Shown piece after piece: positions 8,408-27,404 of a stretch of DNA of 32,000 nt (its first letter is position 1; every line of letters begins with the position of its first letter). A program made the translations under genes and the position numbers. The notes under the pieces were generated by a model, which was given only the letters and a program-made list of their open reading frames with translations, did no database searches and had not been told where the DNA came from. The DNA is from Candidatus Scalindua sp. (GTDB taxonomy: Bacteria > Planctomycetota > Brocadiia > Brocadiales > Scalinduaceae). The stretch covers positions 390,001 to 422,000 of the forward strand of contig JALDRA010000001.1 of the NCBI GenBank assembly GCA_031316235.1, read 5' to 3'.

Positions 8408-8421
8408 TTTCCCCTCCAGAG

Positions 8422-8525
8422 TATACTAAAACCGATTTGGTTTTAGATTTTGCTAAAAACCAAAGCCTGCTTGCTGATATCCCCGGACAAAAAAACAGCG
8501 AGGGCTTTGTGATTATGAATGCGGG
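8422..8525 (+). repeat. mosaic intergenic repeat copy (5' module plus central CCCCGGAC module)
   Basis: tatactaaaaccgatttggttttagattttgctaaaaaccaaagcctgcttgctgatatccccggacaaaaaaacagcgaggg... It starts 14 nt from the ATG of the 7715-8407 gene. Confidence 0.75.
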
Positions 8526-8584
8526 ACAATACGGTAACAAACTATTTAAAGAATCAAAAGATAAAAAGCATTAAATGAGTGTCC

Positions 8585-10849: not shown

Positions 10850-10934
10850 CAGTACTCTCTCCTTTTGTTATCATGTTTGAGTATAAGTTACCGAATTGCT
10901 CTCACTTACTGGATTACCAGAAAAGTAAACATTT

Positions 10935-10975
10935 ATCAGTCAAATGCAGAATACTCTATTCTGCATTTGACTGAT
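10935..10975 (-). terminator. strong hairpin at the 3' end of the haem-protein gene (candidate terminator)
   Basis: Perfect 19-bp inverted repeat atcagtcaaatgcagaata / ctc / tattctgcatttgactgat overlapping the last codons and stop. On the minus strand it is followed only by a weakly U-rich aaatgtttactttt. Confidence 0.4.
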
Positions 10976-11735
10976 TCTCAGAAGGATAAGGGAATTTCAA
11001 ACTAATGGCTCCCCGTATCTCTCCTTCCTTATATCCCTCCTTTATTTTATGAGAAATGTCTCTCTCTCCCTCAGGACCTCCATGGCATTTGAGACAGGGA
11101 GTGGTAACATAAAGAGGTAACATATATCGGTATGTCATCGATCCATCGTGATTCGTAACAATCTCTCCTTTCCCTTTCCCTTTCGGGTAACCGCTGGTCT
11201 CAAATTCTTTCAGCACACCCTTTTCAAAGGAATCAGGATGATTCGCAGGATTCCTGAATTGAAGACTCGTCTGCTTGAGATTATAGCCTGCTCCCAACGC
11301 CTTGTTATATTTGTAACCTGTACGTCTCCCAACAATTGCAGGAATCAATTTTTTAAATCCCCTGCCTTTCATGTTCAGTACGTTCTGACTTTCATCGATT
11401 ACGGTTTTTGAAGACATAAGCAGGGTACCCAGGATTTTTTTTGTGGGATCAGGAGAAGAAGCGTCATTTTCAGAAACATCCACACCGGTAGCATCTTTAA
11501 AATGTTTCTTGACCTTGGTTATATAGATATCGCCAGTAAACCCTTTATCGCCTTTTGAAGGATCGTTAAACAAATCCTGATTTTGGGCAATAATGGCCCG
11601 GCAGGAAACAAGCAGTCTGGCAGCAAGTTCAGCCTGCTTTTCCAAATCTTTTTCAACATCTGCAAAGAGATGAGCTGAAGAAATAAAAATGGTAAACAAT
11701 AAAATCAACACTCTGAGCATTAATTTCCTCAACAT
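10956..11735 (-). CDS. periplasmic c-type haem protein, DUF3365 (Tll0287-like) family
   Basis: Signal peptide; single CxxCH site (CLKCHGGP) followed by YKEGEIRGAISLKFP, the arrangement I recall for DUF3365. Start moved to the ATG preceded by GAGGAG (MLRKLMLRV). Confidence 0.7.
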   Translation of the reverse strand: MLRKLMLRVLILLFTIFISSAHLFADVEKDLEKQAELAARLLVSCRAIIAQNQDLFNDPSKGDKGFTGDIYITKVKKHFKDATGVDVSENDASSPDPTKKILGTLLMSSKTVIDESQNVLNMKGRGFKKLIPAIVGRRTGYKYNKALGAGYNLKQTSLQFRNPANHPDSFEKGVLKEFETSGYPKGKGKGEIVTNHDGSMTYRYMLPLYVTTPCLKCHGGPEGERDISHKIKEGYKEGEIRGAISLKFPYPSENQSNAE

Positions 11736-11818
11736 CAGGTACTCCTCTCTAATCAAAAAACATTAAAAAAAATTGGTGCTCTTCGACACACAAGAACAAG
11801 ACCTCCAGGCAAAGCGGT

Positions 11819-11866
11819 TATACGAAAACGATTCGGTTTCAGATTTTTACGTATCAAATCAGCACG
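11819..11866 (+). repeat. partial mosaic repeat copy (5' module only)
   Basis: tatacgaaaacgattcggtttcagatttttacgtatcaaatcagc, colinear with the first ~48 nt of the copy at 16122. Confidence 0.55.
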
Positions 11867-11873
11867 TATATTT

Positions 11874-12710
11874 TCATTCAGCAGCGCTTTGGTCGGAAAC
11901 AATCATGTAGAGTCCTGTTAACCGGTCAGTCTTATCCAGGAGAGTGTCACAGAATTTAACCATCATTGGTACATTAAATTTTGTACCATTACTCTCAATA
12001 CATTCAGTTGCTGCTTTGTACACTTTTCTCCATTCCATTTTAGTTATGGAATTTATAAGGCCCTTGATCTCGGATGTGTTTTCAGTAGCACCTTCCAATG
12101 TTAAAATGGTACTTTCAAATTCAACTGCAGCATCCAGCATTAAATCTATTCGATAATCTTTGTCGATATCCATGCTCGCAGCAAGATAATCACGTGACAA
12201 TTTCTGAGAATACATCCGCTGCCGCCCTGCAATATTAATAATTTCTGATAGGGGCACAGGTGACAGGGATTCCATATATGATGTCATCATCTCATTTTCT
12301 TCAAGCAGTTTATCGCTTGCATCCAGGACATCGGAAAACCTATCCTTAGTTATTTCCTGGGAAAGCAGCTTTTCAAGCTGACGCCAATTTTCCTGAGCGG
12401 ACTTGACCGTCTGCGTTAATTCAGGGCTCTTGGCAACAGGTGTATACACCAAAAGCTCATTATAGATTTCACTCATTCTCTTTCTCTCGGCATTTAAATA
12501 TTTTTTAGCAATTATTTTTTTCCCTGCAGGATAATCCTTCAAGACTTGAATTCCATATAAATTTGCCATTCTCATTGATAACATTCTGGTTTTACCGCTA
12601 TTATTAATAGCCTGCTCCGTATTTTCTATTGTCAACGCATGTACCTGTGTCACGGCTGTAACGGCAAAAAACATAAAAACAAACACTCCGATTGATCTTT
12701 TCATTTCCAA
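11874..12710 (-). CDS. secreted stand-alone PilJ/NarX-type four-helix-bundle (sensor-like) domain protein
   Basis: Signal peptide (VFVFMFFAVTAVTQVHA) and twin motifs SGKTRMLSMRM / IAGRQRMYSQKL. No transmembrane or output domain. Close paralogue of aa 305-548 of the 8585-10849 product. Confidence 0.8.
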   Translation of the reverse strand: MEMKRSIGVFVFMFFAVTAVTQVHALTIENTEQAINNSGKTRMLSMRMANLYGIQVLKDYPAGKKIIAKKYLNAERKRMSEIYNELLVYTPVAKSPELTQTVKSAQENWRQLEKLLSQEITKDRFSDVLDASDKLLEENEMMTSYMESLSPVPLSEIINIAGRQRMYSQKLSRDYLAASMDIDKDYRIDLMLDAAVEFESTILTLEGATENTSEIKGLINSITKMEWRKVYKAATECIESNGTKFNVPMMVKFCDTLLDKTDRLTGLYMIVSDQSAAE

Positions 12711-12947
12711 CTCCTTATAATATTAAATTGGTTTTTTTCTTCTCAAGGTACAGCAACCATTCTTTTATACGGATACTAAAAAAATCTTCGCTGCAAACGA
12801 ATAAACCCTTTACATCAGGTCATCTCAGCTCTTACCACTCTGCGTTACCCATATGGAAAAAACCGGCCGCCGGTCATTCAGGTTCTGCTGTTGCAGGATA
12901 CTTATCACGTAACCTGTTTTGTTCTGAATCTTATACGGAGCTAGTGT

Positions 12948-12997
12948 CTTTGTCAATATGACAAAGTATGACAAGGTATGACAAAGTATGACAGAGT
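12948..12997. promoter_or_regulatory. inverted repeat plus four phased 10-bp direct repeats (candidate regulator-binding array)
   Basis: ctttgtca-ata-tgacaaag palindrome followed by atgacaaagt / atgacaaggt / atgacaaagt / atgacagagt in exact tandem (12958-12997). Lies ~240 bp upstream of the start at 12710. Confidence 0.35.
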
Positions 12998-13135
12998 AAT
13001 ACTGGTCTGCATGAAGAGACGGAGGATTTGTTACCGGGAAGAGGTAAGAAAGGTGTACATGGTTTTATAAAAAGAAAAGAAATGCTATACAAACTTCATT
13101 TTTACTCTTTTTTCCTGCTTCTCCCTGAACAGCCT

Positions 13136-13275
13136 CCCGGATTGTATCCGAAAACCATTATAAGATGAGTAGAATACACCGTTGAGGATGATCCCCGGAC
13201 AAAAAACCCCGGGGACATTGTGAATAAGAATATGGTACTGTTCAGGTGAAACCGGATCCTGAAAACCGATGGTCA
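13136..13275 (+). repeat. mosaic intergenic repeat copy with permuted module order
   Basis: The 3' module (cccggattgtatccgaaaaccattataagatgagtagaata) is followed by the CCCCGGAC module (gatccccggacaaaaaaccccgggga, itself a hairpin) and then an aaaaccgat 5'-module fragment. Confidence 0.6.
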
Positions 13276-13320
13276 ATTTGCAATGGATATGCCGTTCACG
13301 AAACTATAATCAAACTGTTT

Positions 13321-13938
13321 CTATTCGGGTAATTTCCCCATTATGTGGTTCCCCACTATTGCTGCCAGGATTGAACTTCCAATTCCGTTAAAGCGCAAAC
13401 CCAGAGCCTCTATATCCTCAAAATTTTCATCATCGGGGATAACTATGAGTTTTTTATTTATCAGTTTCGCTACACCCAGAGGTATATAGAAATCAATCAA
13501 ACCCGTTGATACATAGAGCCAGTTAAAAACCTCATCTCTCTGATTCATTAATTCTCCGGCAACATTCCCCTCAATAATTTCTTCCAGAATGGTTTTGATT
13601 TCTCCGATTTTTGACTTAGTCGTCTGGATGACAAACTCATCTGATTCATAGGCTTTGATTTTTCTATTGGTATTGCTTGATGAGAGTTGAGCATTCAGCC
13701 ACTTTTTCTGGGTTGGCGGCAGGTCCGGAATTATGCTGTGTAACTGGTCTATTTCTTTTCTCAATGCCTGCGCAAAAGCAATTCTTTCTTCCTTTCCGGG
13801 AGCTGGGTCCACTTTCAAAATTGTTGTACTCTCCGGTGCGGTGAAAGCGACTGATATATCTATCGTCATCACATTCAAACCAAAATATAGTACAATTGTT
13901 AATAAAACTGTGTTAATAAATGCGGTTTTCGTGGTCAT
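13321..13938 (-). CDS. hypothetical membrane-anchored protein
   Basis: 205-aa ORF with one N-terminal hydrophobic helix (FINTVLLTIVLYFGLNVM) and SD AGGAAGGA upstream. No recognisable motif. Confidence 0.55.
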   Translation of the reverse strand: MTTKTAFINTVLLTIVLYFGLNVMTIDISVAFTAPESTTILKVDPAPGKEERIAFAQALRKEIDQLHSIIPDLPPTQKKWLNAQLSSSNTNRKIKAYESDEFVIQTTKSKIGEIKTILEEIIEGNVAGELMNQRDEVFNWLYVSTGLIDFYIPLGVAKLINKKLIVIPDDENFEDIEALGLRFNGIGSSILAAIVGNHIMGKLPE

Positions 13939-13961
13939 ACATATTCCTTCCTGTTTTTCTT

Positions 13962-14141
13962 TTATTTAAAACTAACCATACTTACCCACTTAAATAATCT
14001 CTCACCGCTATTCTGAAGCATTTCTGCAATGGAGCAAAGGGCTGACGGACTGCACATTACCTGGTGAAAAATAAAAATTTGCTGTAAAAGATTATCAGAT
14101 AACGGGTGTGTAATAAGAGACAAAAGGAAATCAGCAGGCAT
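13962..14141 (-). CDS. hypothetical small protein
   Basis: 59-aa frame from the ATG preceded by AAGGAGGA (5-nt spacing), directly upstream of the 13321-13938 gene. No family recognised. Confidence 0.4.
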   Translation of the reverse strand: MPADFLLSLITHPLSDNLLQQIFIFHQVMCSPSALCSIAEMLQNSGERLFKWVSMVSFK

Positions 14142-14416
14142 TTGATTCCTCCTTTGCTCAATCAAGATGAGTGCATGGGGACAGTATCACCTTCCATTAC
14201 AACCAGGATAAGGTTATCCATGAGGAAAAGACTCTGGCATTCGTTAAATCTTTAACCCCTCTGAATATGCTTTGGTTGAATAATAAAGTGATATGTCTCT
14301 AAAATCAAGGATAAAACTGAAGACAAGACCATCACTGATTCCTCGTACTTTATATGTCAGGGTTGTTTATGTATGAGTAAAAGCAACAATCACGCTCCAT
14401 GTGCCTGATTGTCGCT

Positions 14417-15658
14417 TCACTGTGTTTGATAAATATAGTCTTTATATGACCATGGAGCAGTACCGATCTTCCACCACAATCGTACATGCACCGGATTCCC
14501 ATTTATGGGGATCCCTGTTACCTTTTGTGTTCTATTTGTCCCTGTTGTTGAGGCAAATATATCTCCCCATGGCTTAGCGCTTACTGATGGAAAGCTTGTC
14601 CCTACTCCCAGCCAGTACCTGCTGACCCCGGCGCCAACGTCCCATTGAAAGGTAACAGTCGATGTCGTCAACGTCTGGCCCGGTGCCGGACCTGTTATTG
14701 CAGGTGCCTGATTACCGCCTCCCTGTTTTTCATAAGTGTAGTCTTTAGTAAACCATGTACTGCCAATTTGCCACCACAATCGTACATACACCGGATTCCC
14801 GTTTATGGGGATTCCTGTTACCTGCTGTGTTGTATTTGTCCCTGTTGATGAGCCATATATGTCTCCAAATGGATAAGTGCTTACTGATTCAAAGCTTGTC
14901 CCCACTCCCAGCCAGTACTTGTCGGCTCCTGAAATGGGGCTCCATTGAAAGGTCACCGTTGATGTCGTTAACGACGAGCCTGGTGGCGGACTTGTCATCT
15001 CAGGGGCATCTGATGAGCTGATAGCCACCGTCACCGTTGCCTCGTTAGAGGTTGCACCCATAGTATCCTCCACCGTATAGCTGAAAGAGTCGTTATCTTG
15101 AAACCCTAAATCTGGTATATATGTAACCGTGCCGTCCCAATTGTTTATGGCGGTACCGTTGGCTGGAAACTTTGTAACAGCGACCGTTGCAGGGTCAACG
15201 GTACCATTGATATCTCTATCATTGGCAATCACATTAATCTCGACCTGAGTATCCGCAGCCATCATCATCAAATCGTCAACCGCAATGGGTGGTGAATTTC
15301 CGGAGACATAGTTTGTATAAATCACCTCATTTGAGTAGACGCTCTCAACACCTTTGGAATTGTATGATACTACCGAAAGATAATAGGTCTTGTCGACTGC
15401 AAGAAAATCGAGAAGCATGCTTGTCTGTTTATTTGCATTCCGACTTGCATGATAATTCCTGCTTGAATTCCCATAGTAGACTTTATATCCGTCAACGTTT
15501 GTCCTATCTACCGGCGGGTCCCAAAATAATGTTGTATCAGCGAACACAACCCCTGTGTTGCATAAAAACAGCAGAATTGTCAGGATTGGAAAAAGAGAGA
15601 AGAAATCAGCTGTCAAAAAAAAGCGCCGTGTTTTCTTTAATGGTAAAAAATCGTTCAT
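14417..15658 (-). CDS. secreted FN3 / cadherin-like (VCBS-type) protein with two tandem copies of the shared ~93-aa C-terminal module
   Basis: Signal peptide; FN3-like aa 42-116 (LFWDPPVDRTNVDGYKVYYG...YYLSVVSYNSKGVES); PPIAVDD...INVIANDRDINGTVD...DSFSYTVED cadherin/VCBS-like segment; modules at aa 220-312 and 320-413 ending YTYEKQ and YIYQTQ. Confidence 0.8.
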   Translation of the reverse strand: MNDFLPLKKTRRFFLTADFFSLFPILTILLFLCNTGVVFADTTLFWDPPVDRTNVDGYKVYYGNSSRNYHASRNANKQTSMLLDFLAVDKTYYLSVVSYNSKGVESVYSNEVIYTNYVSGNSPPIAVDDLMMMAADTQVEINVIANDRDINGTVDPATVAVTKFPANGTAINNWDGTVTYIPDLGFQDNDSFSYTVEDTMGATSNEATVTVAISSSDAPEMTSPPPGSSLTTSTVTFQWSPISGADKYWLGVGTSFESVSTYPFGDIYGSSTGTNTTQQVTGIPINGNPVYVRLWWQIGSTWFTKDYTYEKQGGGNQAPAITGPAPGQTLTTSTVTFQWDVGAGVSRYWLGVGTSFPSVSAKPWGDIFASTTGTNRTQKVTGIPINGNPVHVRLWWKIGTAPWSYKDYIYQTQ

Positions 15659-15702
15659 CAGAATCTCCTATTTATTTTTTTATAAAGTGTACGTTGCCAC
15701 GC

Positions 15703-15717
15703 TTGTCAATCTGACAA
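15703..15717. promoter_or_regulatory. palindromic TTGTCAATCTGACAA motif upstream of the 14417-15658 gene
   Basis: ttgtca-atc-tgacaa, 45 bp upstream of the ATG at 15658. Same core as the motifs at 6459 and 12949. Confidence 0.3.
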
Positions 15718-16121
15718 TGCAGGTCATGAATACTATTTGAGTTACTGTTACCGCTACCTTACCCCCTAGCAAGAAGCATGCCAAGCTGAATCTTCTGAGT
15801 TATGTTTTTGTGATTATTGAAGTTACAATACTGAAAGCGTAGGTAAGGTGATCAGTCATATGAAGGAAATCTCAAACAGTAAACGTGGAAGGTACGTAAA
15901 CCGGTCGCTTAAGCGTCTGCCAATTCTCAACTTTCAGGGGTAGGCTTATCCATACAACATGTGGTAGCTCTCAATATCCTGGAAACGTGCTTAACTGGTA
16001 AAGGAAGTTAAAGATCTGAAGAGTTGTGGATATATAATGTGTTACGTGAGTCAGAAGAAATTGTGAAAAAACTGTGAATGCACTCAGGCGGCACGTGCTC
16101 CGTAACATCACAAGGAGTTGA

Positions 16122-16233
16122 TATACGAAAACCGATTTGGTTTTCGGTTTTACCGGAAATCAAATCTGGGTGAAGGTATACTCGCTCAATTTTGTCTCGG
16201 ATTTTATCCGAAAACCATTATGAGATGAGTATA
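16122..16233 (+). repeat. mosaic intergenic repeat copy (5' module plus 3' module)
   Basis: tatacgaaaaccgatttggttttcggttttaccggaaatcaaatctgg...ctcggattttatccgaaaaccattatgagatgagtata. Confidence 0.7.
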
Positions 16234-16424
16234 ACTGATGATACGGGTTCAAAAAAACAATCGGGTCTTCTCATCTCTCGTTTCAGGGCCGTCTTCGTCA
16301 GCCCTTCACCAGAACAAACTTCAATTCACCGAGTTACACTCTACCATCCCGGCTCAACCTGCCATTCAGTCTGGCCAGATCGATACTAAACGCGGCAAAA
16401 TACAAAGCTTCTTTTCCTGATCCT

Positions 16425-17594
16425 TTAGCTGTCGCAGCCCGCTGCTCTCTGTAATTCTTCAACCTTATCTGTTTTTTCCCAGGTGAAGTCAGGGTCATCT
16501 CTGCCAAAGTGGCCATAACTGGCTGTTTTTTTGTAAATAGGCCTCCGGAGATTCAGTACATCAATGATCGCTTTCGGCCTGAAGTCAAAAACCTTACGTA
16601 CCGCGTCCTGGATTTCTTTTTCAGATCTCTTTTCAGTACCGAAACACCATACGTTCACGTTTGTTGGTTGTGCAATGCCGATTACATAGCTCAACTGCAC
16701 CTCGCAGCGCCTTGCCAGTCCTGCGGCAACGATATTCTTCGCCACATAGCGTGCCATATACGCACCGCTTCTATCAACCTTGGATGGGTCTTTTCCTGAA
16801 AAACATCCGCCTCCATGTCTTCCCGCCCCGCCATACGTATCAACAATAATTTTTCTCCCTGTAACACCCGTGTCTCCTTCCGGGCCCCCTGTTACAAATC
16901 TGCCGGTTGCATTTATGTGTACTATTGTGTTTTTGTTACTGTATTGCCCGCATACCGGATTGACAACATGTTCAAGTATTTGAATCCGTAAATCTTCTGT
17001 TGATATCGCATCGGTATGCTGCTGCGCAATAACTACATCAGTGACTTTTATCGGTTTATCATTTTCATACAGTATTGTAACCTGTGATTTTCCATCCGGG
17101 CCAATCTCCTCAATTACACCCCGTTTTCTTACTTCTGCAAGTTTCATCGTAAGCTGATGAGCCAGCATTATCGGCAGGGGCATGAGCACCGCAGTTTCAT
17201 CTACCGAATAACCATACATCATTCCCTGGTCTCCGGCACCCTGTTCATTATCCTCCCCTTTTCCTGCCGTTATCCCCCGGGAAATATCAGGACTTTGGCT
17301 GTGGATACTCACCCAGACACCTGCACTCTCTGAGTCAATGCCGAATTTATGATTGGTATAACCAATTTCCCGTAAGGTTTCCCGCACGATCTTCTGTACG
17401 TCTGCCCATCCTGCGGTAGATACCTCACCGGCAACATGAACAGTACCGGTAGTTGCCAGACATTCAATTGCTACTCTGCTATCAGGGTCCTGTCCTATCA
17501 GATTATCCAGTATGGCATCACTGATTATGTCACAAATCTTGTCCGGATGACCTTCTGTTACACTCTCACTGGTTATGGTATAGCTCCGTTTCAT
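16425..17594 (-). CDS. metK: S-adenosylmethionine synthetase
   Basis: Canonical MetK motifs: TSESVTEGHPDKICD, GAGDQGMMYGY, DTYGG, GGGCFSGKDPSKVDRS. Start set at MKRSYTITSE, since the 35 upstream codons of the track ORF have no homology logic. Confidence 0.93.
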   Translation of the reverse strand: MKRSYTITSESVTEGHPDKICDIISDAILDNLIGQDPDSRVAIECLATTGTVHVAGEVSTAGWADVQKIVRETLREIGYTNHKFGIDSESAGVWVSIHSQSPDISRGITAGKGEDNEQGAGDQGMMYGYSVDETAVLMPLPIMLAHQLTMKLAEVRKRGVIEEIGPDGKSQVTILYENDKPIKVTDVVIAQQHTDAISTEDLRIQILEHVVNPVCGQYSNKNTIVHINATGRFVTGGPEGDTGVTGRKIIVDTYGGAGRHGGGCFSGKDPSKVDRSGAYMARYVAKNIVAAGLARRCEVQLSYVIGIAQPTNVNVWCFGTEKRSEKEIQDAVRKVFDFRPKAIIDVLNLRRPIYKKTASYGHFGRDDPDFTWEKTDKVEELQRAAGCDS

Positions 17595-17909
17595 ATTACC
17601 CTCTTCCCGGAATAAATGGACTATTTGTATTTTTAGAAAATTACGTTTTAATCTGTTATCGGTATCAACTTGTGTCAGGTAACTAATCTCCCATTTCATC
17701 TTGTTTTGGGAAACACCCGTCTATTATAAGTATCCTTGTTTTTTTAATCTACCAGATTTCATATCATAAAGGCATGCATATTTTCAGATCTTGAAACAGG
17801 ACTGAAAATATGTAATAATTTTGTAACGGTACCGAAACTATAGAATATCCGGGTTGTGTCCGGGTGTGGTAGAAACCATCCATATTAAAAACTAAGAGAA
17901 GACACACAC

Positions 17910-18107
17910 ATGATTGATATTATTGAATGGCTTCGGAAAATTGAACGTTCAGCAAATAAAGTTTATCTGCAAGCTGGTTTAGCGGAAAATAGTCTTTCAA
18001 AAGAGGAACTGATCACGAAAATTGCGAAAGTAGAAGTTTCAGAATATAATGAAATTTTTCTCTATGTTGTTACCTTTCTAAAAGAAAAACTGGACAAATT
18101 TGAATGA
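17910..18107 (+). CDS. hypothetical small protein
   Basis: 65-aa ORF whose stop overlaps the start of the next gene (ATGA), suggesting translational coupling. No motif recognised. Confidence 0.4.
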   Translation: MIDIIEWLRKIERSANKVYLQAGLAENSLSKEELITKIAKVEVSEYNEIFLYVVTFLKEKLDKFE

Positions 18108-18475
18108 TTAAACTACTGATCTTTATAAAAACCAATTGGGCTGTTTTCACACTGTTTACCCTTGCAGTCATAACGACCTTTTCTCTCTGGCCATTGGAAA
18201 AATTACCACCGGTACCAGGAACTGATAAAACCCACCATTTGATTGCTTATGCCGTTTTGATGTTTCCTACGGCTTTACGCAAACCAGATAAATGGATACT
18301 GTTCGGTTTATTATTTATAGCTTACAGCGGCGTAATCGAATTATTTCAACCATATGTAAATCGTTACGGAGAGTGGCTGGATATTGCAGCAAACACTGCT
18401 GGAGTAGTTTGTGGTTTGATCATCGCAGAGCTGATAAATAATTTTTTCCCGGTAATTTCAAATAGTTCCCGGTAA
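18104..18475 (+). CDS. VanZ-like membrane protein
   Basis: 123 aa with several hydrophobic helices. The pattern DKTHHLIAYAVL ... ELFQPYVNRYGEWLDIAANTAGVVCG fits my recollection of the VanZ-like family. Confidence 0.55.
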   Translation: MIKLLIFIKTNWAVFTLFTLAVITTFSLWPLEKLPPVPGTDKTHHLIAYAVLMFPTALRKPDKWILFGLLFIAYSGVIELFQPYVNRYGEWLDIAANTAGVVCGLIIAELINNFFPVISNSSR

Positions 18476-18605
18476 TTACTAAAATGGATTTGTATTCGGG
18501 AAGATGTGACTTATTACTGTAAAATATTCAAAATGATTAATTAGTTTCTCTACCCTAAGCACATTCAAACGTTACTTAGCCACAAAAGAGCCTTCACTTC
18601 ACTTG

Positions 18606-18750
18606 ATAAACTAAAACCGATTTAGTTTTAGATTTTTCTCAATACCAAAGCCTTGTTGCTGGTATCCCCGGACACACCAGGCGTCGAGGACCTTACCCGC
18701 TCCGTTTTTTCTCGGATTTTATCCGAAATCCAGTATAAGATAAGGATATT
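18606..18750 (+). repeat. mosaic intergenic repeat, full-length copy
   Basis: ataaactaaaaccgatttagttttagatttttctcaataccaaagccttgttgctggtatccccggacacaccaggcgtcgaggaccttacccgctccgttttttctcggattttatccgaaatccagtataagataaggatat. Confidence 0.75.
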
Positions 18751-19004
18751 TATACGAAGGGGGTCTATAGTGGAGGATCTTAAAACCATTATGAACAGCT
18801 TTAGTGTGAGAAAAAGCAATCACTATAAATCGCCTATTCGTTAGCCCTTTTTTTTACTGGTTTTTTGTGACCAATTTGTGACTAAGGTTTTGTCGCACAT
18901 TAAAACACATTACGATATCTTGCAGTATTTGGATTGGTGGTGAATAGGGCGTTAACCTTCTTATTAACAGGAAGTTAGATGCAAATATCGGCAGGACAAA
19001 GAAG

Positions 19005-19051
19005 TACGCCCGAGAGGATTCGAACCTCTGGCCTACGGTTTAGGAAACCGT
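19005..19051. repeat. att-type direct repeat (displaced copy of the tRNA-Arg 3' 47 nt)
   Basis: tacgcccgagaggattcgaacctctggcctacggtttaggaaaccgt is identical to 26607-26653. The flanks diverge on both sides (19004 g vs 26606 a; 19052 t vs 26654 c). Confidence 0.9.
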
Positions 19052-19121: not shown

Positions 19122-20117
19122 TCAGCACACTTTGACATTCTGGATAATCCTTTTAAGATCCTCAGTGTAAACTTTCGTATAAATATCAAGAGAAGTAATC
19201 GCGCTCTTGTGTCCCAATAACGCCTGAATATGTTTCGGGTGAGTGTTATTACTTGCCAAAATTGTAGCGAACGTATGCCGCAAACTATGCAGATTAAGCC
19301 CGTCAGGATCAATACCCGCCTTGGCAATACATTCCTTAAAGCGCCTTAGTAAATTGTTTTTGTACTGAGTCCCGATTTTGGTCTTGAATACGTACCCTTT
19401 CCGGTCCACCATCTTCTTTAACTCAACCATCAAGCCGGGTGATATGGGTATCTCTCGCACTCCTGCATTGGTCTTTGATTGCCTTACCGATATCATTCCC
19501 TTATCAAGATCCACGTCACCCCATGTCAAGCTAATAAGCTCTGAAAGCCTTACGCCTGTGGATAGAAACGTCAACCAAATAATTTTGTATTTCCCTGAAT
19601 GATTCAACAAGCTGGTGATCTCTTCATGAGTCAATACCCGCCTTGCTGGCCTTCTCTCTTTGAAATATTTAATATCTGCAATGGGATCAAATGTGATCAC
19701 CTTTGTTTGGATACCATAGGCAATTACACGCTTGAATAATCCTATTGTACGGTTCAGGATCTTGGCCGATTTTCCTGCCTGAATCCGTGAGTTAATATAC
19801 CCATTCAATAAGCTTCTCAGGGTGGCCAATTGAACGCCCTGCATTTGTTCAAAGGCATTGTTAAGGATTGTTTCTGAGTCGTGATATGTTTTGGGAAGTA
19901 TGTGCGGTTTGATCTCTTGTAAGAAATCATTTTTCAGCCTGTCAAGCGGATAACCTTCTTGAACGATACCGAACGCCGCAAGCTGATTGCTTGAAACCAG
20001 CCTGTTATAGATCTTTTGCGCTGTGTTCCTGTTTGAACTCAGCTTTTTTCGGACCCGTTTTCCGTTTACGTAGATATCAGAATACCAAGTATCTCCGATT
20101 TTGCGAATAGGTGACAT
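19122..20117 (-). CDS. int: tyrosine recombinase / phage-type integrase
   Basis: 331 aa. The N-terminus GDTWYSDIYVNGKRVRKKL looks like an arm-binding domain. The catalytic-domain pattern is present: GVRLSEL (Arg), HSLRHTFAT (His-x-x-Arg), LLGH, LDIYTKVY (Tyr). Confidence 0.9.
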   Translation of the reverse strand: MSPIRKIGDTWYSDIYVNGKRVRKKLSSNRNTAQKIYNRLVSSNQLAAFGIVQEGYPLDRLKNDFLQEIKPHILPKTYHDSETILNNAFEQMQGVQLATLRSLLNGYINSRIQAGKSAKILNRTIGLFKRVIAYGIQTKVITFDPIADIKYFKERRPARRVLTHEEITSLLNHSGKYKIIWLTFLSTGVRLSELISLTWGDVDLDKGMISVRQSKTNAGVREIPISPGLMVELKKMVDRKGYVFKTKIGTQYKNNLLRRFKECIAKAGIDPDGLNLHSLRHTFATILASNNTHPKHIQALLGHKSAITSLDIYTKVYTEDLKRIIQNVKVC

Positions 20118-20291: not shown

Positions 20292-21632
20292 TTACTCTTT
20301 TTGATCTTCCGACCTTCTCTTGTTTTCAAATATCCTTACCCGGCCTGCGGCAACCGCTTCACTATACGCCTTAAAACTCTCAAAGCTTGAAAACTCTTCC
20401 TGTAATTCCTTTGATGCATCCCATTTTGCCTTTAACGCTTCAGGTGTTACCGATTGTCCCGGTTCCGCTTTGGCACTGTCTACTCGCCCGGTAATTCTCA
20501 CTTGCCCGGCGGCAACCGCTTCACTATACGCCTTGTAGCTTCCAAAACTTGAAAACTCTTTCTGAAGATCTGGCGAAGAGTCCCATTTTGCCTGATATGA
20601 GTCTTTGACTTCTGTTACCTCTGTTGCTTCCTGTTTTGTTTCCATGCTTCCCCCTTTCAAATTAGGAATTTTAAAGCCTACCCTCTTTTGCTCTGCTGCA
20701 AGTATTTGTGTCGCCGCTTCCCCGGTACTGGTGACACCATCGGCTTTTAATTTCTTGACCAAGGCTTCATGCCCGGGTAATGATAATTTTTCGATACCTT
20801 TCACCCGTGCGACCTCTGCAACCTCTGCAATGGTCCCTTTCATGCTCTTGATACCATCAACCAGCCCGGCTTTAATGCCCTGACTACCCAGAAATAACTG
20901 GCCGTCCGCCATGTTGGCTAAAACTTCCTCTACGGATACCCCTCTAAACTTTGCTACGTCCCCGGTAAACGCATTGTAAATATGCGCAACCTGACCTTGT
21001 AGCTCTTCGAGGCCTTCATCCGTTAACGGCGCGTAATCCGAAACAATACGTTTCTTGGTCCCGGCTGTCACTTCTGTGGTCTTGATACCGATTTTCTTTT
21101 CAAGCTCTGAGATATCAACGTGAGTTGCTATAACGCCAATTGACCCGGTCGTCACTGCCTCGTCGGTTATATACACCTTGCTTGCTGCGGACCCTATCCA
21201 ATAAGCCGCACTTGTAGCCATGGCCGACGAAATCGCAAAGACTGGTTTAACCTTGCTACCTGAATGAACCAGTTTTGAAAATTCCTGAACCCCGAACACG
21301 CTTCCGCCGGGTGAGTCAATATCGAGGACGATTGCTTTAACCGTGCTGTCTTTGAGAAGCGCGTTAAACTCTTGAGTCAACACGTCAAGCCCGATACCGC
21401 CGAACAGATAAGACCAAATGTCTGACTTAGGCTGAATGATCCCTTCAATGGGCAAAATAGCGACGTCACCATCAACACGGTACAGATTACCCTTCCTTTT
21501 AACCGGGTTATCATAATAAGCCTTCACCGCTTCATGATCAACATTCTGGACAGCCGCCTTTATCTTTTGTAGCTCCTGCCGGGTAATTGCCCATAGATTT
21601 GACAATTTGTCAATTTTTGTATTGTGAGTCAT
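20292..21632 (-). CDS. S49-family (SppA/ClpP-fold) prohead maturation protease with a duplicated C-terminal scaffold-like module
   Basis: VLDIDSPGGSV, SSAMATSAAYWIGSAA and GSIGV motifs of peptidase S49, as in lambda gpC-type head proteases. The C-terminal ~110 aa hold two copies of AKWDxSxxLQxEFSSFxSxKAYSEAVAAGxVRI. SD GGAGGAG. Confidence 0.8.
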   Translation of the reverse strand: MTHNTKIDKLSNLWAITRQELQKIKAAVQNVDHEAVKAYYDNPVKRKGNLYRVDGDVAILPIEGIIQPKSDIWSYLFGGIGLDVLTQEFNALLKDSTVKAIVLDIDSPGGSVFGVQEFSKLVHSGSKVKPVFAISSAMATSAAYWIGSAASKVYITDEAVTTGSIGVIATHVDISELEKKIGIKTTEVTAGTKKRIVSDYAPLTDEGLEELQGQVAHIYNAFTGDVAKFRGVSVEEVLANMADGQLFLGSQGIKAGLVDGIKSMKGTIAEVAEVARVKGIEKLSLPGHEALVKKLKADGVTSTGEAATQILAAEQKRVGFKIPNLKGGSMETKQEATEVTEVKDSYQAKWDSSPDLQKEFSSFGSYKAYSEAVAAGQVRITGRVDSAKAEPGQSVTPEALKAKWDASKELQEEFSSFESFKAYSEAVAAGRVRIFENKRRSEDQKE

Positions 21633-21665: not shown

Positions 21666-22067
21666 TTAAACTCTCGATAATGCTTCTTGCAAGATACCCG
21701 TCAAAATCTTGTGAATTTCGCTTTCCGTCAAGATATGATTCAGGCCTTGCATTTTCTCAAGGTAGATATCTGGAACCTTGAAAATTTCTTCCTTGATACG
21801 TTTGCTCAGGATCTCGTCTTTGGTATGCTCTGCTATGTTTGCTTTGTACTCTGTCAATGCGGTCCGTGCCTTGCTGAATGTGTCCTGACTTTTGACCGCT
21901 TTCCTTGCATCAAGCCATTGTCGGGCTGTATCCAAATCAAAAACGATCCTGCCTCTTCCGGTCCGGCTGAATGGCATTCCGTTAAATCTCCAAGATATTA
22001 CCGCTTGCGTTGACACGTTTAGCATTTTGGCCAATTCGGCCTGACTTACCCTCTCACTTGATCTCAC
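21666..22067 (-). CDS. MerR-superfamily winged-HTH protein, Nu1-type small terminase-like or AlpA/excisionase-like
   Basis: VSQAELAKMLNVSTQAVISWRFNGMPFSRTGRGRIVFDLDTARQWL parallels lambda Nu1 (QLADIFGASIRTIQNWQEQGMPVLRGGGKGNEVLYDSAAVIKWY), but the same fold occurs in AlpA/Xis. 133 aa with a helical C-terminal half. GTG start with AAGGAGG. Confidence 0.5.
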   Translation of the reverse strand: MRSSERVSQAELAKMLNVSTQAVISWRFNGMPFSRTGRGRIVFDLDTARQWLDARKAVKSQDTFSKARTALTEYKANIAEHTKDEILSKRIKEEIFKVPDIYLEKMQGLNHILTESEIHKILTGILQEALSRV

Positions 22068-22205: not shown

Positions 22206-22793
22206 CTATCCCTTCTCGCTCAGTATATCCTTGAGAATTGCATCGGTTTTATTCCTTCGGTCCTCATTCGTTAAAATTCTCAAAGCCTCATATTGATTGC
22301 TGATAACCGCCACGCCTGATGGGTTCACGCCCGGATTAGAAACCGTCAAGCAGAGTAGGTATCTCGATAACAAATCCCCTGCTTTCTCTTGGACCTCTTC
22401 GAGTATCCGGTCTCTCTCTTTACCAAACAGCTTCATTAATGCGGTTTGCTTCGCCGCTCTTGTCTGCTGTAGCGCGTTGCCCGCATTGGCAACCGCAATA
22501 CGTAGATTCTCAACAACAACCGCAAAATCAGATACCAGCGCCCTTGCTCTGTCTGTGTCAGCTTTGGCCTTTTGAAGATCCTTGACCGTGATAAGATCCC
22601 GCGATTTTTCATTCTTCAAGCAAACCTCAAGGTTTTGCTGTGAGTTCTCTAAGTCAATCCCTGCCTGAATCAATCTCAGATTCATTTTCTCTGCCTGTGA
22701 AACCAAATAACTTTCTTTTTTCTCTAATTCTCGAAATGTGTCAGCCGTGCTCATTTCTTTTGCTATCTCTTCTGTCTCAGTGATTGTTACCAT
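22206..22793 (-). CDS. hypothetical coiled-coil protein
   Basis: 195 aa counted from the ATG preceded by GGGAGGG (MVTITETEE...). Heptad-rich and alanine/glutamine-rich helical sequence; no motif recognised. Confidence 0.6.
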   Translation of the reverse strand: MVTITETEEIAKEMSTADTFRELEKKESYLVSQAEKMNLRLIQAGIDLENSQQNLEVCLKNEKSRDLITVKDLQKAKADTDRARALVSDFAVVVENLRIAVANAGNALQQTRAAKQTALMKLFGKERDRILEEVQEKAGDLLSRYLLCLTVSNPGVNPSGVAVISNQYEALRILTNEDRRNKTDAILKDILSEKG

Positions 22794-22922
22794 TTGCAAA
22801 CCCTCCCGTATAAAGCTACAAAAATACGCGCCCGGCACACTGCCAGAACGCTTCCAAAAAACCTTGACAATATTACTTGTATAATACAACAATTGCATTA
22901 ACTACGTTTCATACAGTTAACT

Positions 22923-23043: not shown

Positions 23044-23412
23044 TTATGCCGCTTTACTCTTTCTATGGTTTTCACGGTCCGTTTTGCGTCTTCGAGCCTT
23101 CCTGCACCTGATGCAAAATCTTTCTCGTTTTGATAACTCAGCACCGCATGAACAAACCCGGACCTTTTCTTTCCTGATTGATAAGTCAATGTCTTGATAC
23201 TGCTTCATGACCTGATCATAACACCCGATAACATTCGCAATCGGCAATACGGCCTTCACAAAATACTCGCAAGGTCTGCTTGATAGGATTCTGCATTTCC
23301 CTTGTTCCCGGAACCCGACGCCGAAAGCATCAACGCCGATACATTCACCGCCGACCAGACAAGCGCATTCTTGTCTAATAAATTCCCATAAGGTAGTTTT
23401 GTTTCTTATCAC
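23044..23412 (-). CDS. cysteine-rich VLP-motif protein with a C-terminal zinc-ribbon-like CxxC...CxxC and basic tail
   Basis: CACLVGGECIG...GKCRILSSRPCEYFVKAVLPIA fits the Cys_rich_VLP pattern (C..C...C.....C.YF...VLP) known from mobile elements. Followed by CSCGAEL...CIRCRKARRRK. GTG start with AAGGAGG at 5-nt spacing. Confidence 0.65.
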   Translation of the reverse strand: MIRNKTTLWEFIRQECACLVGGECIGVDAFGVGFREQGKCRILSSRPCEYFVKAVLPIANVIGCYDQVMKQYQDIDLSIRKEKVRVCSCGAELSKRERFCIRCRKARRRKTDRENHRKSKAA

Positions 23413-23468: not shown

Positions 23469-24374
23469 TTACGTCCTCCCCTGATTAAGTACAATTTTTC
23501 CTTTTTTAATATCTGACCTTATGAAATTTCCCACGGCTGCCGCATGGTCCTTGTACTTTTTCCCATGTGCCCGCATGTAGCCGTCAAGATCCTCGATAGC
23601 ACTAACAACATTATCCGCACCGTATTTCCTGACAAGTGATTGATAAGCATTCGACGAAATATAAACAAGCTCTGCCCTACGCCTTTTTACGTACCCGGAT
23701 AAAAATTCGCCCGGATCTCCTCCTTTTTCCAAAACCGCCGCCGTTTTTTTTAAAAGCGATTGACAATCTTTAAACCCAATTTTCTGATTAACGCTTTTCA
23801 ACTTACCTAAAAAATCTAACCAAGTTTTTTCGGTTAGGTTTTTAGGGAGAGAGATTTTTTCCAACCGCGCGGTTTTTTCGCGCGCGGTTTTTATTTCTAC
23901 TTCTTTAAATTTCTTTTTACTTCTTTTTACTTCTTTCTTTGTGGTGTTTTGCTGGTGTTTTGCTGGTGTTTTGTTGGTGTTTTGTTGGTGTTTTGTTGGT
24001 GTTGTGTAGTTCTCATATTCTTGGTATGCCCCGTATTTGCATACAGTTACGATAGTAAATTTGTTGGTGCCGTTTTTGGAAATAGCTTTATATTTCACTA
24101 ATCTTTTTATAGATTCGTAAAACGTGTTAGGGTTGAGTTTTAAATCTCTCGCGGCTTCAAATCTACCATAAACAAATTGCCCGGTTTTTAACTCATGCCC
24201 CCTGTGCGAAATGGCTTCCGTTTTGTAGTTAGCACGAAACAAACACCATAGAAAAACTTTAACGTCAACGGCATTATCCCATATCCTTTTATCCTGCAAA
24301 ACCCTTCCAACAAGGACGAAACCGCCGGGAATCACCGGCACCTTTACTGCCCCGCCTTCAATCTCTGTCGACAT
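23469..24374 (-). CDS. putative replication initiator / replisome organiser (winged-helix N-terminal domain)
   Basis: The N-terminal ~110 aa (VKVFLWCLFRANY...TGQFVYGRFEAARDLKLNPNTFYESIKRLVKYKAI) resemble phage/plasmid replication-protein wHTH domains. The central low-complexity linker is encoded by 11-bp iterons. The start overlaps the stop of the upstream ORF (TAATG). Confidence 0.55.
   Translation of the reverse strand: MSTEIEGGAVKVPVIPGGFVLVGRVLQDKRIWDNAVDVKVFLWCLFRANYKTEAISHRGHELKTGQFVYGRFEAARDLKLNPNTFYESIKRLVKYKAISKNGTNKFTIVTVCKYGAYQEYENYTTPTKHQQNTNKTPAKHQQNTTKKEVKRSKKKFKEVEIKTAREKTARLEKISLPKNLTEKTWLDFLGKLKSVNQKIGFKDCQSLLKKTAAVLEKGGDPGEFLSGYVKRRRAELVYISSNAYQSLVRKYGADNVVSAIEDLDGYMRAHGKKYKDHAAAVGNFIRSDIKKGKIVLNQGRT
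23942..24003. repeat. 5.6 tandem copies of an 11-bp unit TGGTGTTTTGY (iteron-like) inside the rep gene
   Basis: tggtgttttgc x2, tggtgttttgt x3, tggtgtt. The 11-bp period makes the peptide repeat every 33 bp (TPTKHQQNTNK / TPAKHQQNTTK). Confidence 0.85.
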
Positions 24375-24799
24375 TATGCCACCCCCTTTGATTTTGGCTT
24401 CTTACGTCTAGGCCTCGCTCCTTTGGCATTAATTTTCACAATCCTGTTGCACACTGGAAACAATGACGATAGCTCTTCAAGTGAAAATTCTTTCCAAATC
24501 TCTTCAAAAGTATAGTTGTCGACCAAACCCTTGAGGGTGCCAATCTCAAGGACTCTTTTTTTCTTGGTAGGCATTTCACGCACGCTAGTCACGTCTACTA
24601 CTTTGCCGCGCCTATTGCGCATTGTATAGAATTCAACATCGTACCGAACCTCATAGACTGTAGGGTTTACGGTAGTGTCAAATGTTGCAAAGCCCGCCAT
24701 CAATGCCAAGTCAATAGCCTTTCTGGCTAGCTTGCGCGTAAAGTTGTTTTCTTTCGCGTACTCTTCAATAGTTACACATTTGATATTTCTGTTTTCCAC
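24374..24799 (-). CDS. hypothetical protein (basic C-terminus)
   Basis: 141-aa ORF with a GTG start, coupled to rep by a 1-nt overlap. The C-terminus GARPRRKKPKSKG is basic. No motif recognised. Confidence 0.55.
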   Translation of the reverse strand: MENRNIKCVTIEEYAKENNFTRKLARKAIDLALMAGFATFDTTVNPTVYEVRYDVEFYTMRNRRGKVVDVTSVREMPTKKKRVLEIGTLKGLVDNYTFEEIWKEFSLEELSSLFPVCNRIVKINAKGARPRRKKPKSKGVA

Positions 24800-25273: not shown

Positions 25274-25453
25274 CTATTTTCCCGCTTTGAGTCTCTGTAT
25301 TTCCTTCATTTTGCTCTCTATCAACTTTCCAGTACCTTCCCGGATCAACTCTGATATACTCGTGTTCAGGTAAAATGCCGCTTCCCGCAAGGTAGCATGC
25401 TGTGACTCTCTCAGCCTGACCATTACCGATTTATTAAAATCTGGTTTCAACAT
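25274..25453 (-). CDS. ribbon-helix-helix (CopG/Arc/MetJ-type) DNA-binding protein
   Basis: 59 aa counted from the ATG preceded by GGAGGAG. NKSVMVRLRESQHATLREAAFYLNTSISELIREG gives the beta-strand plus two helices pattern of RHH regulators. Confidence 0.65.
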   Translation of the reverse strand: MLKPDFNKSVMVRLRESQHATLREAAFYLNTSISELIREGTGKLIESKMKEIQRLKAGK

Positions 25454-25486
25454 TTCGTACTCCTCCTTCAGGTTAAAAAATTTGCA

Positions 25487-25526
25487 TAAAAAAAGCGTGC
25501 GTGTCATACATCTATGGCACACACGC
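25487..25526 (-). terminator. rho-independent terminator after the 25616-25882 gene
   Basis: On the minus strand gcgtgtgtgcca-tagatgta-tgacacgcacgc (10/12 pairs) is followed by T7. Confidence 0.55.
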
Positions 25527-25530
25527 CGTC

Positions 25531-25559
25531 AGTATACAATATGTATTATGATATGTCAA
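25531..25559 (-). promoter_or_regulatory. sigma70-type promoter for the RHH gene and downstream genes
   Basis: On the minus strand: TTGACA (25559-25554), 17-nt spacer, TATACT (25536-25531). The predicted start falls inside the upstream arm of the terminator hairpin. Confidence 0.55.
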
Positions 25560-25615
25560 GTAATATCAGTGTAGTCAAACTTTTTCTTATTCGGCTTTTT
25601 ACTATTGTCAAGTCT

Positions 25616-25882
25616 CTATTCCTTCACAAAAACCGTGTTTCCGTCTTCTCCGTAAACTAAAAATTTAAGATCCTCCATAACTTCACTACTCAATAAGCTG
25701 AGTCCTAATGCCTCGGACCCGGAAAAGTCATCTTCGTTGTTTATGATTCTCTGAAAGATCCCAATAATCCCGGCTAATTTGCAAAATGTCTCATCTGCAT
25801 TAATGTTGCGATAGTTAGTCAATTGCCCACTCTTAGCACTTGACACCTTTTCTTTCTCCTTCTCAACTGTCTTTTTGTTCAT
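25616..25882 (-). CDS. hypothetical protein
   Basis: 88-aa ORF with AAAGGA upstream and a terminator downstream. No motif recognised. Confidence 0.5.
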   Translation of the reverse strand: MNKKTVEKEKEKVSSAKSGQLTNYRNINADETFCKLAGIIGIFQRIINNEDDFSGSEALGLSLLSSEVMEDLKFLVYGEDGNTVFVKE

Positions 25883-25924
25883 TGCCTTTTATCCTTTCAA
25901 AAAGTTATAAAATTTTAACAATCA

Positions 25925-26227
25925 TCAAGTAACCTTCAATTTCGATGCCAATTTCGTCACCTTCTCAACTTCATCCGCTCTGGTAGTTATTGCCCTTTGT
26001 CGCGGGTATGTCTTGCCGTCTGCACCCTTTGACGTGTGCGATTCGCACACCTGATTATTGTTAATTAGATTCTTTCTTGCTAACGAAACCGTGTTATTGC
26101 TAACCCCTAACCCCTTAGAAATCTGCCTATCTGAAATTTCCGGGGTTTCTCTCAACTGGTCCCTGACAAGTTCCTGCTTTTGTTTCTGGTTAAGATGCCG
26201 CCTTGCAAGGTTTTCTCTTGCCGTCAA
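25925..26227 (-). CDS. HTH DNA-binding protein (ParB/KorB-like HTH region)
   Basis: ENLARRHLNQKQKQELVRDQL...SDRQISKGLGVSNNTVSLARKNL resembles the helix plus HTH segment of ParB-type proteins. TTG start; an in-frame TAG 12 codons upstream excludes a longer N-terminus. Confidence 0.5.
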   Translation of the reverse strand: MTARENLARRHLNQKQKQELVRDQLRETPEISDRQISKGLGVSNNTVSLARKNLINNNQVCESHTSKGADGKTYPRQRAITTRADEVEKVTKLASKLKVT

Positions 26228-26494: not shown

Positions 26495-26606
26495 ATAAAA
26501 AGGTAGTTTTATGTAACAAAATGGAACAGATTGCGCTATGAGAAGGGTAAAAAAACGGCTTATTTAGGGGGGAAATTTTGTTGTAAGTCTTTTAGGGTGA
26601 AAGAGA

Positions 26607-26680
26607 TACGCCCGAGAGGATTCGAACCTCTGGCCTACGGTTTAGGAAACCGTCGCTCTATCCTTCTGAGCTACGGGCGT
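26607..26680 (-). tRNA. tRNA-Arg (anticodon CCU)
   Basis: The reverse complement folds as a 74-nt cloverleaf: acgcccg-ta-gctc-agaaggata-gagc-g-acggt-TTCCTAA-accgt-aggcc-agagg-ttcgaat-cctct-cgggcgt-a. CCA is not encoded. Its 3' 47 nt form the right att repeat. Confidence 0.9.
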
Positions 26681-27404
26681 ATGGAGCTTTTAATGGCATA
26701 TATTCAGGTATAACGTTTGTAAAAGCATAACTTAAATCCTCTGCACACCCTCAAGCTCAATAATGCAAACTAATACAAATCTGTGGGCAGAATATGGGCA
26801 ATAAAAGTCAGGAAAAAAATACTCTCAGTTTCCATATATTCGTAATACTTCGAATGGTATTAGAATGGAACATAAAGTGAATTCATCGATACAATCGCCT
26901 ATACAATAAAGTGATTACTCGATACTGACATGTATACGTATTTCTGGTAAGTTTATCAAAGTTCGCCTGTATGGGCAAGAAATTTTATACTATCCGTTTT
27001 TTTACCTCATTTACGTCATTACTATAAAATGTAATTTAGTTTACATCATATTTTATTATGTTGTTTACCATAATCTGCTTTCTGTTCAAGTTCGCTCACT
27101 CCTTTCACCTGGACTCGCAGTCGCGAGTCACTCTCTCGAATTCTCCCCTTCAAAATACCTAACCCTTTTTTTGAAAGCATACACAATTGTCAACAGTAAC
27201 TGACACTATGTATAACCAGAAACAACCTCCAATTTCTGTCATAAAAGAAAAAATTAAACTTTCAACTGCCATAGTTTTAAAGCTTTACTTCTTTTCTAGA
27301 TGAAAATTTATTTCCTTGGTATAAAATTTGAGATAGCATAACCAACAGTTGCACTTGTTTAAGAAAGTTATTTTAAACACAATCATTTTTAGGTAGATAC
27401 AAAC

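Follow-up and report, generated by a model that had tools for sequence, protein, structure and literature searches.

A lambda-type protease-scaffold with a doubled terminal motif in a small satellite-like element of Candidatus Scalindua

Why should a 7.6-kb integrated element that carries no capsid gene keep the gene for a phage head-maturation protease? The question is raised by a stretch of 32,000 nucleotides (the window) from Candidatus Scalindua sp. (assembly GCA_031316235.1, contig JALDRA010000001.1, positions 390,001 to 422,000), where one gene of such an element encodes an S49 protease continued by a scaffold region, here called P0001. In the reading that we favour, and to which we give somewhat better than an even chance, the element is a satellite akin to the phage-inducible chromosomal islands (PICIs) and inserts its own protease-scaffold, with its doubled terminal motif, into the procapsids of a helper phage, thereby altering their assembly.

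The open reading frame (ORF) for this protein runs without a stop along the minus strand, and its first part is a protease.

20292..21632, minus strand: S49 prohead protease-scaffold P0001, lambda gpC/Nu3 type (446 aa; from family matches, fold and catalytic residues)
20847..21485, minus strand: protease (SppA-like) domain, residues ~50-262 (AlphaFold2 predicted local distance difference test score, pLDDT, mostly >90)

Residues 126-277 match Pfam Peptidase_S49 (PF01343; E 2e-34; score 119 bits, cut-off 24.9), and the family with the best match is PHROG 53, "head maturation protease", which spans residues 13-398 (E 5e-72). The AlphaFold2 model, whose overall pLDDT is 83.7, has its best Foldseek matches in the SppA structures 4kwb/3rst (E 5e-17; template-modelling score on the target 0.84), as expected of an SppA/ClpP-like fold; identity to lambda gpC is 30% across 219 aa. 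Neither S141 nor K194 varies among 90 homologues; in alignment with B. subtilis SppA they fall on its catalytic Ser and on its Lys position, the latter being Ala in the crystallised mutant. From what is generally known of SppA, we take these two residues to be the catalytic Ser and Lys. On sequence grounds, then, P0001 is a lambda gpC-type protease of head maturation whose Ser/Lys dyad is intact and which is competent for catalysis. An earlier note on this DNA had called it an S49 prohead protease, and the Pfam and PHROG 53 matches and the dyad bear this out.

Databases list the homologues of P0001 under the name "signal peptide peptidase SppA", and SppA also supplies the nearest solved structures, both by sequence and by fold. 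One might therefore take the protein for a cellular signal-peptide peptidase that merely happens to lie on the island, a view to which we give next to no credence. The housekeeping SppA of this genome, its only other S49 gene and one found in nearly all relatives, is a different gene of about 357 aa with 32% identity to P0001, and on this ground the earlier note was right to prefer a prohead protease to a cellular SppA. Besides the match to PHROG 53, homologues of P0001 lie between portal and capsid genes, and the predicted model has no N-terminal membrane-spanning helix.

The surroundings of P0001 are atypical of prohead proteases: the gene is flanked by a small terminase (TerS) gene and an integrase gene, not by portal and capsid genes, between which most homologues sit. 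Its start, with a GGAGG Shine-Dalgarno sequence, lies 33 nt downstream of the small-terminase-like gene. The closest named homologues are annotated as Ca. Scalindua (49% identity over the full length), and the closest with a readable context belong to complete lambda-like head modules of prophages in the same genus. Two genomes of the genus, G001 and G002, have a homologue that is 51-52% identical over residues 7-287, in a module made up of TerS (phrog_57), large terminase (TerL; phrog_15), portal (phrog_21), protease (phrog_53), decoration protein and capsid (phrog_371). The order usually seen in IMG/VR and GTDB genomes, over 160 loci, is TerL-portal-protease-(decoration)-capsid; scans of metagenomes turned up nothing close, the only match being an ordinary portal-protease-decoration module (L202). 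The earlier note had held that a capsid gene beside the protease in related elements would make P0001 an ordinary head-module fragment. Such neighbours are present only in the sense that the homologues belong to full prophages and not to sibling elements.

The C-terminal ~180 aa of P0001 are the normal scaffold part of its family.

20676..20843, minus strand: helical Nu3-like scaffold core, residues 264-319 (helices 264-282, 289-298 and 303-319 in the AlphaFold2 model)
20493..20591, minus strand: C-terminal motif unit 1, residues 348-380 (motif hidden Markov model E 4e-18; three short helices in 345-374, pLDDT ~95)
20331..20429, minus strand: C-terminal motif unit 2, the ancestral terminal copy, residues 402-434 (motif hidden Markov model E 6e-18; helices in 397-428)
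20643..20645, minus strand: internal in-frame ATG (M330), preceded by GAAAGGGGG, strongly Shine-Dalgarno-like; candidate start

The core (conserved residues E273, R276, G287, D298 and A307) aligns with a stand-alone scaffold ORF, L201:9296-9829, at 33% identity across 140 aa (E 7e-16); its likeness to the core of lambda Nu3 was judged by eye only. More generally, a homologue of P0001 from about residue 250 to 446, motif included, forms a separate ORF of 167-183 aa in six head modules, five of them from IMG/VR (L029, L035, L039, L042, L060) and one, L201, in a Brocadiaceae-type prophage. Because this ORF occupies the canonical scaffold position, between a protease of ~290-330 aa and the decoration/capsid genes, we regard the tail of P0001 as the equivalent of Nu3. 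The earlier note's scaffold module is thereby upheld, and the terminal unit, which it proposed to look for in phage scaffolds, is indeed present in the separate scaffold ORFs of these six modules. What does not survive is the idea of an unusual fusion: alignment identifies the unit (W-D-x6-L-x2-E-F-x2-F-x2-Y-x-A-Y...G-x-V-R/K-I) as the conserved extreme C-terminus of the protease family, it is single-copy in most relatives, which reside in ordinary head modules, and multi-copy forms are common worldwide. The protease/scaffold proteins of same-genus and same-order prophages (L014, L201) have this terminal motif in common with P0001.

In P0001 the motif stands twice, followed after unit 2 by the basic tail typical of the family. 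The repeat of a 33-aa unit that the earlier note described is evident in the DNA, where 20494-20593 and 20332-20431 are 77% identical over 100 nt and lie 162 nt, or 54 codons, apart in frame. The repetition is far beyond chance: when 150 related protease/scaffold ORFs are scanned for tandem repeats in their last 140 aa, P0001 is the top outlier, with 13/14 identical positions against a background of <=8. The two units differ at 15 of ~20 synonymous sites (pS 0.74) with pN at 0.11, giving a ratio of nonsynonymous to synonymous change (dN/dS) of ~0.04 over 33 codons only, which suggests that the duplication is old and that purifying selection acts on both copies. AlphaFold2 renders each unit confidently as three short helices, with a disordered linker between the units, and the 97-99% identical variants P0124 and P0125, from other samples, retain both. 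Given the saturated synonymous sites with low pN, the confident models and this retention, both copies look functional. Compared with the homologues in same-genus prophages, P0001 is shorter by a segment of ~60-100 residues where the protease passes into the Nu3-like helices. One may speculate that M330 starts a 117-aa product of two units, akin to free-standing two-unit proteins found elsewhere.

Such proteins emerged when a profile of the motif, which has no Pfam family, was run against 1.84 billion representatives and returned 2,574 protein clusters. The motif occurs in two copies behind S49 proteases, in two or three behind Mu-like_Pro (PF10123, the Mu gpI-type proteases), and as two copies making up free-standing proteins of 105-140 aa; examples with PF10123 or in free-standing form are among P0129, P0130 and P0142-P0204. 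Since it is joined to both S49 and Mu-like_Pro, families of prohead protease that are not related to each other, the motif is a portable module, and its distribution fits a role in targeting to the capsid interior or as a scaffold module. Eleven of 401 sampled Planctomycetota genomes carry it, the source genome alone in doubled form. The 117-aa tail gave no match to cultured phages by tblastn, and a related query led only to the protease C-terminus of Pseudomonas phage KT1; degenerate DNA patterns for the doubled motif retrieved 0 and then 2 chance matches from IMG/VR, the patterns being strict enough that absence does not follow.

The element that carries P0001 is bounded by a direct repeat and has all its genes on the minus strand.

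18998..19051, no strand: left attachment (att) repeat, which copies part of the tRNA-Arg 3' end (direct repeat of 54 nt with 26600-26653, identity 96%)
26605..26681, minus strand: tRNA-Arg(CCT), the integration target (ARAGORN); the right att repeat (26600-26653) is formed by its 3' part
19122..20117, minus strand: tyrosine integrase, 331 aa (Pfam Phage_integrase E 1e-26; phrog_1 E 2.5e-60)
21666..22067, minus strand: short small-terminase-like protein, 133 aa (phrog_57 E 2.9e-12)
22206..22898, minus strand: helical ORFan, 195-230 aa (no Pfam or PHROG match; sole relative a 98%-identical copy on short contigs)
23044..23412, minus strand: Cys-rich small protein (Cys_rich_VLP E 1e-4, weak and under the cut-off)
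23469..24374, minus strand: DnaD-like replication initiator, Rep (phrog_2514 E 6e-19), with internal 11-nt iterons at 23925-24006
24374..24799, minus strand: 141-aa protein (no family match)
25274..26227, minus strand: three small tRNA-proximal ORFs of 82, 88 and 100 aa, putatively regulatory (weak repressor and winged-helix matches)

In the same-genus genome G001 the left flank joins tRNA-Arg(CCT) directly and the alignment is unbroken over the junction, an empty site that marks the 7.6 kb as a discrete insertion. The genes within are intact, tightly packed and provided with Shine-Dalgarno sequences, and every ORF of at least 270 aa is assigned (integrase, protease and Rep). The C-terminal part of the small terminase is 26% identical to the TerS of same-genus prophages (pairwise E 4e-4), and Rep is 33% identical to the Reps of those prophages and of another small element in the genus (L190, below). 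Promoter-like sites lie at 20154-20127 for the integrase (TTGAAC-16-TATAAT) and at 25559-25531 for the tRNA-proximal ORFs (TTGACA-17-TATACT); a test for regulators of the AlpA or Stl type found only weak helix-turn-helix and repressor matches, in these same small ORFs. For the ORFan at 22206-22898 the nearest named cluster in the Atlas is P4 Psu (0.92), a weak lead that was dropped, with no Pfam support.

Two observations concern the flanks. A ~140-nt intergenic repeat at 18606-18750 adjoins the left of the element and has further copies within 155-18750; it matches dozens of sites in G001 and G002 at 75-84% identity, with the look of a family of miniature inverted-repeat transposable elements abundant across the genus. 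In G001, 20 kb downstream of the empty site, a perfect 43-nt match to the tRNA-Arg body (G001:C13:260501-260543) could represent another copy of the tRNA or else the distal end of some other island there.

Pfam and PHROG searches, with all 7.6 kb accounted for, found in the element neither capsid, portal or large-terminase genes nor any for tail or lysis, and no remnants of TerL, portal or capsid genes were seen. In the genome as a whole (4.26 Mb, 96.85% complete), searches with PF03864, PF05065, PF05876 and the capsid and large-terminase proteins of the same-genus prophages likewise gave no capsid, portal or TerL gene. The earlier note's picture of a protease without cognate capsid, alone in a small satellite-like element, is thus sustained by the att repeats, the empty site in G001 and the empty genome-wide capsid search. 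Because the element appears able to integrate, replicate and supply a small terminase, while capsid, portal, large-terminase, tail and lysis genes are missing, we class it as a PICI-like satellite. At the level of sequence it has the features by which such satellites are defined (Fillol-Salom 2018; de Sousa 2023), namely integrase, att sites, a replicon and TerS, with no structural or lysis genes beyond the protease-scaffold.

Deletions in a decaying lambda-like prophage could also have produced the element, the protease then being a relic without present role. Its protease, TerS and Rep are homologous to those of full prophages in the genus, and the searches above found no helper in the source genome. 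The near-perfect att repeats and the clean empty site are hard to reconcile with decay, as are intact, tightly packed ORFs among which no TerL, portal or capsid fragments remain, strong purifying selection on both repeat units, and the compact TerS-protease operon with its short gap and Shine-Dalgarno sequence. Similar small elements exist besides (L113, L190 and L068). With the insertion clean, the genes intact and both repeat units under selection, we hold a remnant to be decidedly improbable.

One of these elements is that at L113:1441-12618, in a Nitrospirota metagenome-assembled genome (MAG; JAMOAZ010000004.1). It measures 11.1 kb, is bounded by a perfect 49-nt tRNA-Val repeat, and encodes an integrase and a primase together with an S49 protease and a Neck1-like protein, with no recognisable capsid, portal or TerL gene. 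Its orphan protease ends in two tandem copies of ELPADYMxxLAExxAA, and that of a relative, L122, in two copies of LKAYMxxSxLxMAAG. P0001, L113 and L122 were the only three outliers in the repeat scan of 150 ORFs, and the motif of the latter two differs from that of P0001. A link between doubling and satellites is therefore suggestive, the three outliers representing two lineages only, one of them the discovery case. It is possible, though doubtful, that capsid-less satellites of distant phyla have independently kept a helper-type protease and duplicated its scaffold-terminal motif, the bivalent protease-scaffold then resizing or poisoning helper procapsids. On a 9.4-kb contig, L068:220-8246 (IMGVR_UViG_3300033553_000547) combines an integrase and O/P-like replication genes with a 93-aa motif-bearing mini-scaffold, a 315-aa tail-less S49 protease and a 600-aa tape-measure protein, again with no recognised capsid gene; L120 is a further capsid-less protease element similar to it. 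Two other candidates for orphan-protease elements, L159 and L148, were rejected for having a capsid gene upstream of the protease.

Siblings of the element itself were sought through Rep and the 230-aa ORFan, a search that led only to prophage Reps, to L190, another small element, and to short contigs with near-identical copies. L190:7059-14220 (G001:C14, about 1230000-1237200) is a second small satellite-like element in the genus; it adjoins a tRNA-Val gene and encodes TerS (phrog_57), an 86-aa ORF, a 311-aa protein, a DnaD-like Rep, a primase/helicase, an excisionase-like protein and an integrase, with no protease. The element at L145:2411-12761 in Vibrio albus (NZ_QFWT01000006.1), 10.3 kb long and enclosed by a repeat of 25 nt, encodes an integrase, a primase, a capsid protein (phrog_29), an ORF of 136 aa and a protease of the S49 type, and resembles an integrated counterpart of the Vibrio satellite plasmid PISP.

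How might the element use its protease-scaffold? The helpers would probably be lambda-headed phages like the prophages in other species of the genus, a plausible type since their TerS, Rep and protease come from the same families as those of the element. One could envision that infection by such a helper leads to excision and replication of the element, whose TerS would steer the helper terminase onto satellite DNA. The protease-scaffold would enter the assembling procapsids through its two C-terminal motifs, which might contend with the scaffold/protease of the helper for one and the same capsid-protein site, in the manner of CpmB. Being shorter and bearing two motif copies, the satellite protein would alter the spacing of the scaffold and the stoichiometry of capsid to scaffold proteins. 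Assembly would then be biased to particles better suited to the 7.6-kb genome or less suited to the helper, with the protease still maturing them. Remodelling or size redirection of capsids by P0001 is conceivable by analogy with known satellites.

Several points weigh against such a role. Nearly all of the best 150 of the 2,574 motif clusters have 2-4 copies, and the closest homologues, P0002 (MDR4498446.1) and P0003 (MDR4497394.1), paralogues from one Ca. Scalindua MAG, also have two. Multi-copy motif proteins being this widespread, the doubling is not unique to P0001 and may be unrelated to satellites. Binding of the motif to capsid protein we infer from its position and by analogy with P22, 80alpha and CpmB, and the genome search that covered the source organism revealed no helper. 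Finally, a satellite of 7.6 kb needs no small capsids, for EcCICFT073, a PICI with a lambda helper, is housed in full-size lambda capsids with no remodelling (PMC6092414), and the marine virion-encapsidated integrative mobile elements (VEIMEs) are packaged as concatemers (PMC9618062).

These last cases make a serious rival, if an unlikely one, of simple complementation, by which the element's own protease-scaffold would secure the maturation of full-size helper procapsids. Helper late genes might be repressed, or the helper protease poorly matched, and the 7.6 kb would be packaged as a concatemer of ~five copies per head. The conserved catalytic dyad agrees with this proposal, and so do the VEIMEs, which dispense with capsid remodelling and some of which have serine proteases (PMC9618062). 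It supplies no reason, however, for a satellite to bear the cost of a gene present in all helpers of this head type, and it leaves the shortened scaffold part and the doubled, conserved motif unexplained.

The protein might instead act purely in interference or defence, as a poison subunit that prematurely cleaves or displaces the scaffold, portal or capsid protein of the helper and takes no part in packaging of the element, the aborted helper production benefiting the host or the element. Disturbance of the helper's capsid assembly is common among satellites (PMC10945586, PMC5644958), the doubled motif might gain in avidity and outcompete the helper scaffold, and the gene adjoins TerS, another function of interference or hijack. 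The architecture of a working head protease, retained in full, fits poorly with a mere poison, and the TerS and replicon point to transfer, not to abortive defence alone; we judge this improbable. The insertion of P0001 into helper procapsids, with altered assembly as the outcome, remains the account that we prefer.

Comparison with systems already described places this proposal in context. P0001 resembles lambda gpC/gpNu3 in its S49 domain, its C-terminal scaffold region and, speculatively, an internal in-frame start like that of Nu3, and its relatives usually lie between portal and decoration/capsid genes; it departs from them in residing in a 7.6-kb element that lacks portal, capsid and large terminase, and in its extreme C-terminal motif, absent from lambda and present twice in P0001. 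The C-terminus of CpmB, from the Staphylococcus aureus pathogenicity island SaPI1, copies the capsid-binding end of the scaffold of its helper 80alpha, and CpmB, like P0001, is a satellite protein with a helper-scaffold-type C-terminus that is shorter than the helper-type protein (PMC5644958). The C-terminus of P0001 is in the same way homologous to a helper-type scaffold end, and would bind capsid protein if the parallel holds. CpmB, however, is a 72-residue dimer with no protease, whereas P0001 has its motif doubled in one chain on an active-looking protease; there is no sequence relationship between them, and size redirection, proven for CpmB, is for P0001 presumed.

We take "periplasmic serine protease" to be the COG name for S49/SppA. 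Proteases so named occur in module 2 of the VEIMEs, capsid-less marine satellites, where they have been tied to procapsid maturation (Eppley et al. 2022, PMC9618062). Like the element described here, VEIMEs are small tyrosine-integrase elements without capsid genes, some with small terminases in their modules (PMC9618062); they differ in being defined by concatemers carried in virions and in belonging to marine Alphaproteobacteria. The Vibrio satellite plasmid PISP (TG93) has genes for a head maturation protease, for a capsid protein E and for a small terminase (PMC13230959). With it and with enterobacterial PICIs our element shares a lambda-type hijack kit of small terminase and helper-type head-assembly genes (PMC13230959, PMC6092414), but those satellites add a capsid protein E homologue, whereas ours has the protease-scaffold alone, in a planctomycete host of the anammox type. 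Capsid-forming PICIs (cfPICIs) also have a prohead protease; they encode the whole head (capsid, portal, connectors and terminases), in contrast to an element in which no capsid, portal or connector gene was detected and the only terminase gene is TerS-like. P4 Sid and the TcaP protein of PLE satellites are, as P0001 may be, satellite factors that alter helper capsid assembly, but they are external scaffolds unrelated to helper proteins, while P0001 would be a scaffold of the internal kind, derived from a helper and linked to a protease.

To our knowledge, none of the proteases borne by satellites has been studied mechanistically, and no satellite has been described in anammox planctomycetes. 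Satellite proteases are known in three settings, the cfPICIs, PISP (PMC13230959) and, in a single sentence, the capsid-less VEIMEs of module 2 (PMC9618062). Set beside PISP (PMC13230959), CpmB (PMC5644958) and these VEIMEs (PMC9618062), the earlier note's statement that this is not a described satellite strategy was too strong. Surveys have located phage satellites mainly in Proteobacteria and Firmicutes, and some in Actinobacteria (PMC10085698). What is new here is a satellite with a helper-type protease-scaffold as its sole head gene, in a planctomycete of the anammox type.

For the question of how capsid-less satellites handle lambda-type heads, the element offers a minimal, testable case consisting of one protease-scaffold gene and a small terminase. 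The analysis also defines a widespread C-terminal scaffold motif outside Pfam, a candidate for a general signal of targeting to the capsid interior. If the link between doubling and satellites is true, it would furnish a sequence signature for finding satellites in metagenomes. Should satellites of distant phyla indeed have arrived at the same device, the bivalent protease-scaffold would represent a principle of capsid hijack distinct from those of CpmB, Ccm, Sid and TcaP, and the hundreds of uncharacterised metagenome proteins with two to four copies of the motif would be its wider footprint.

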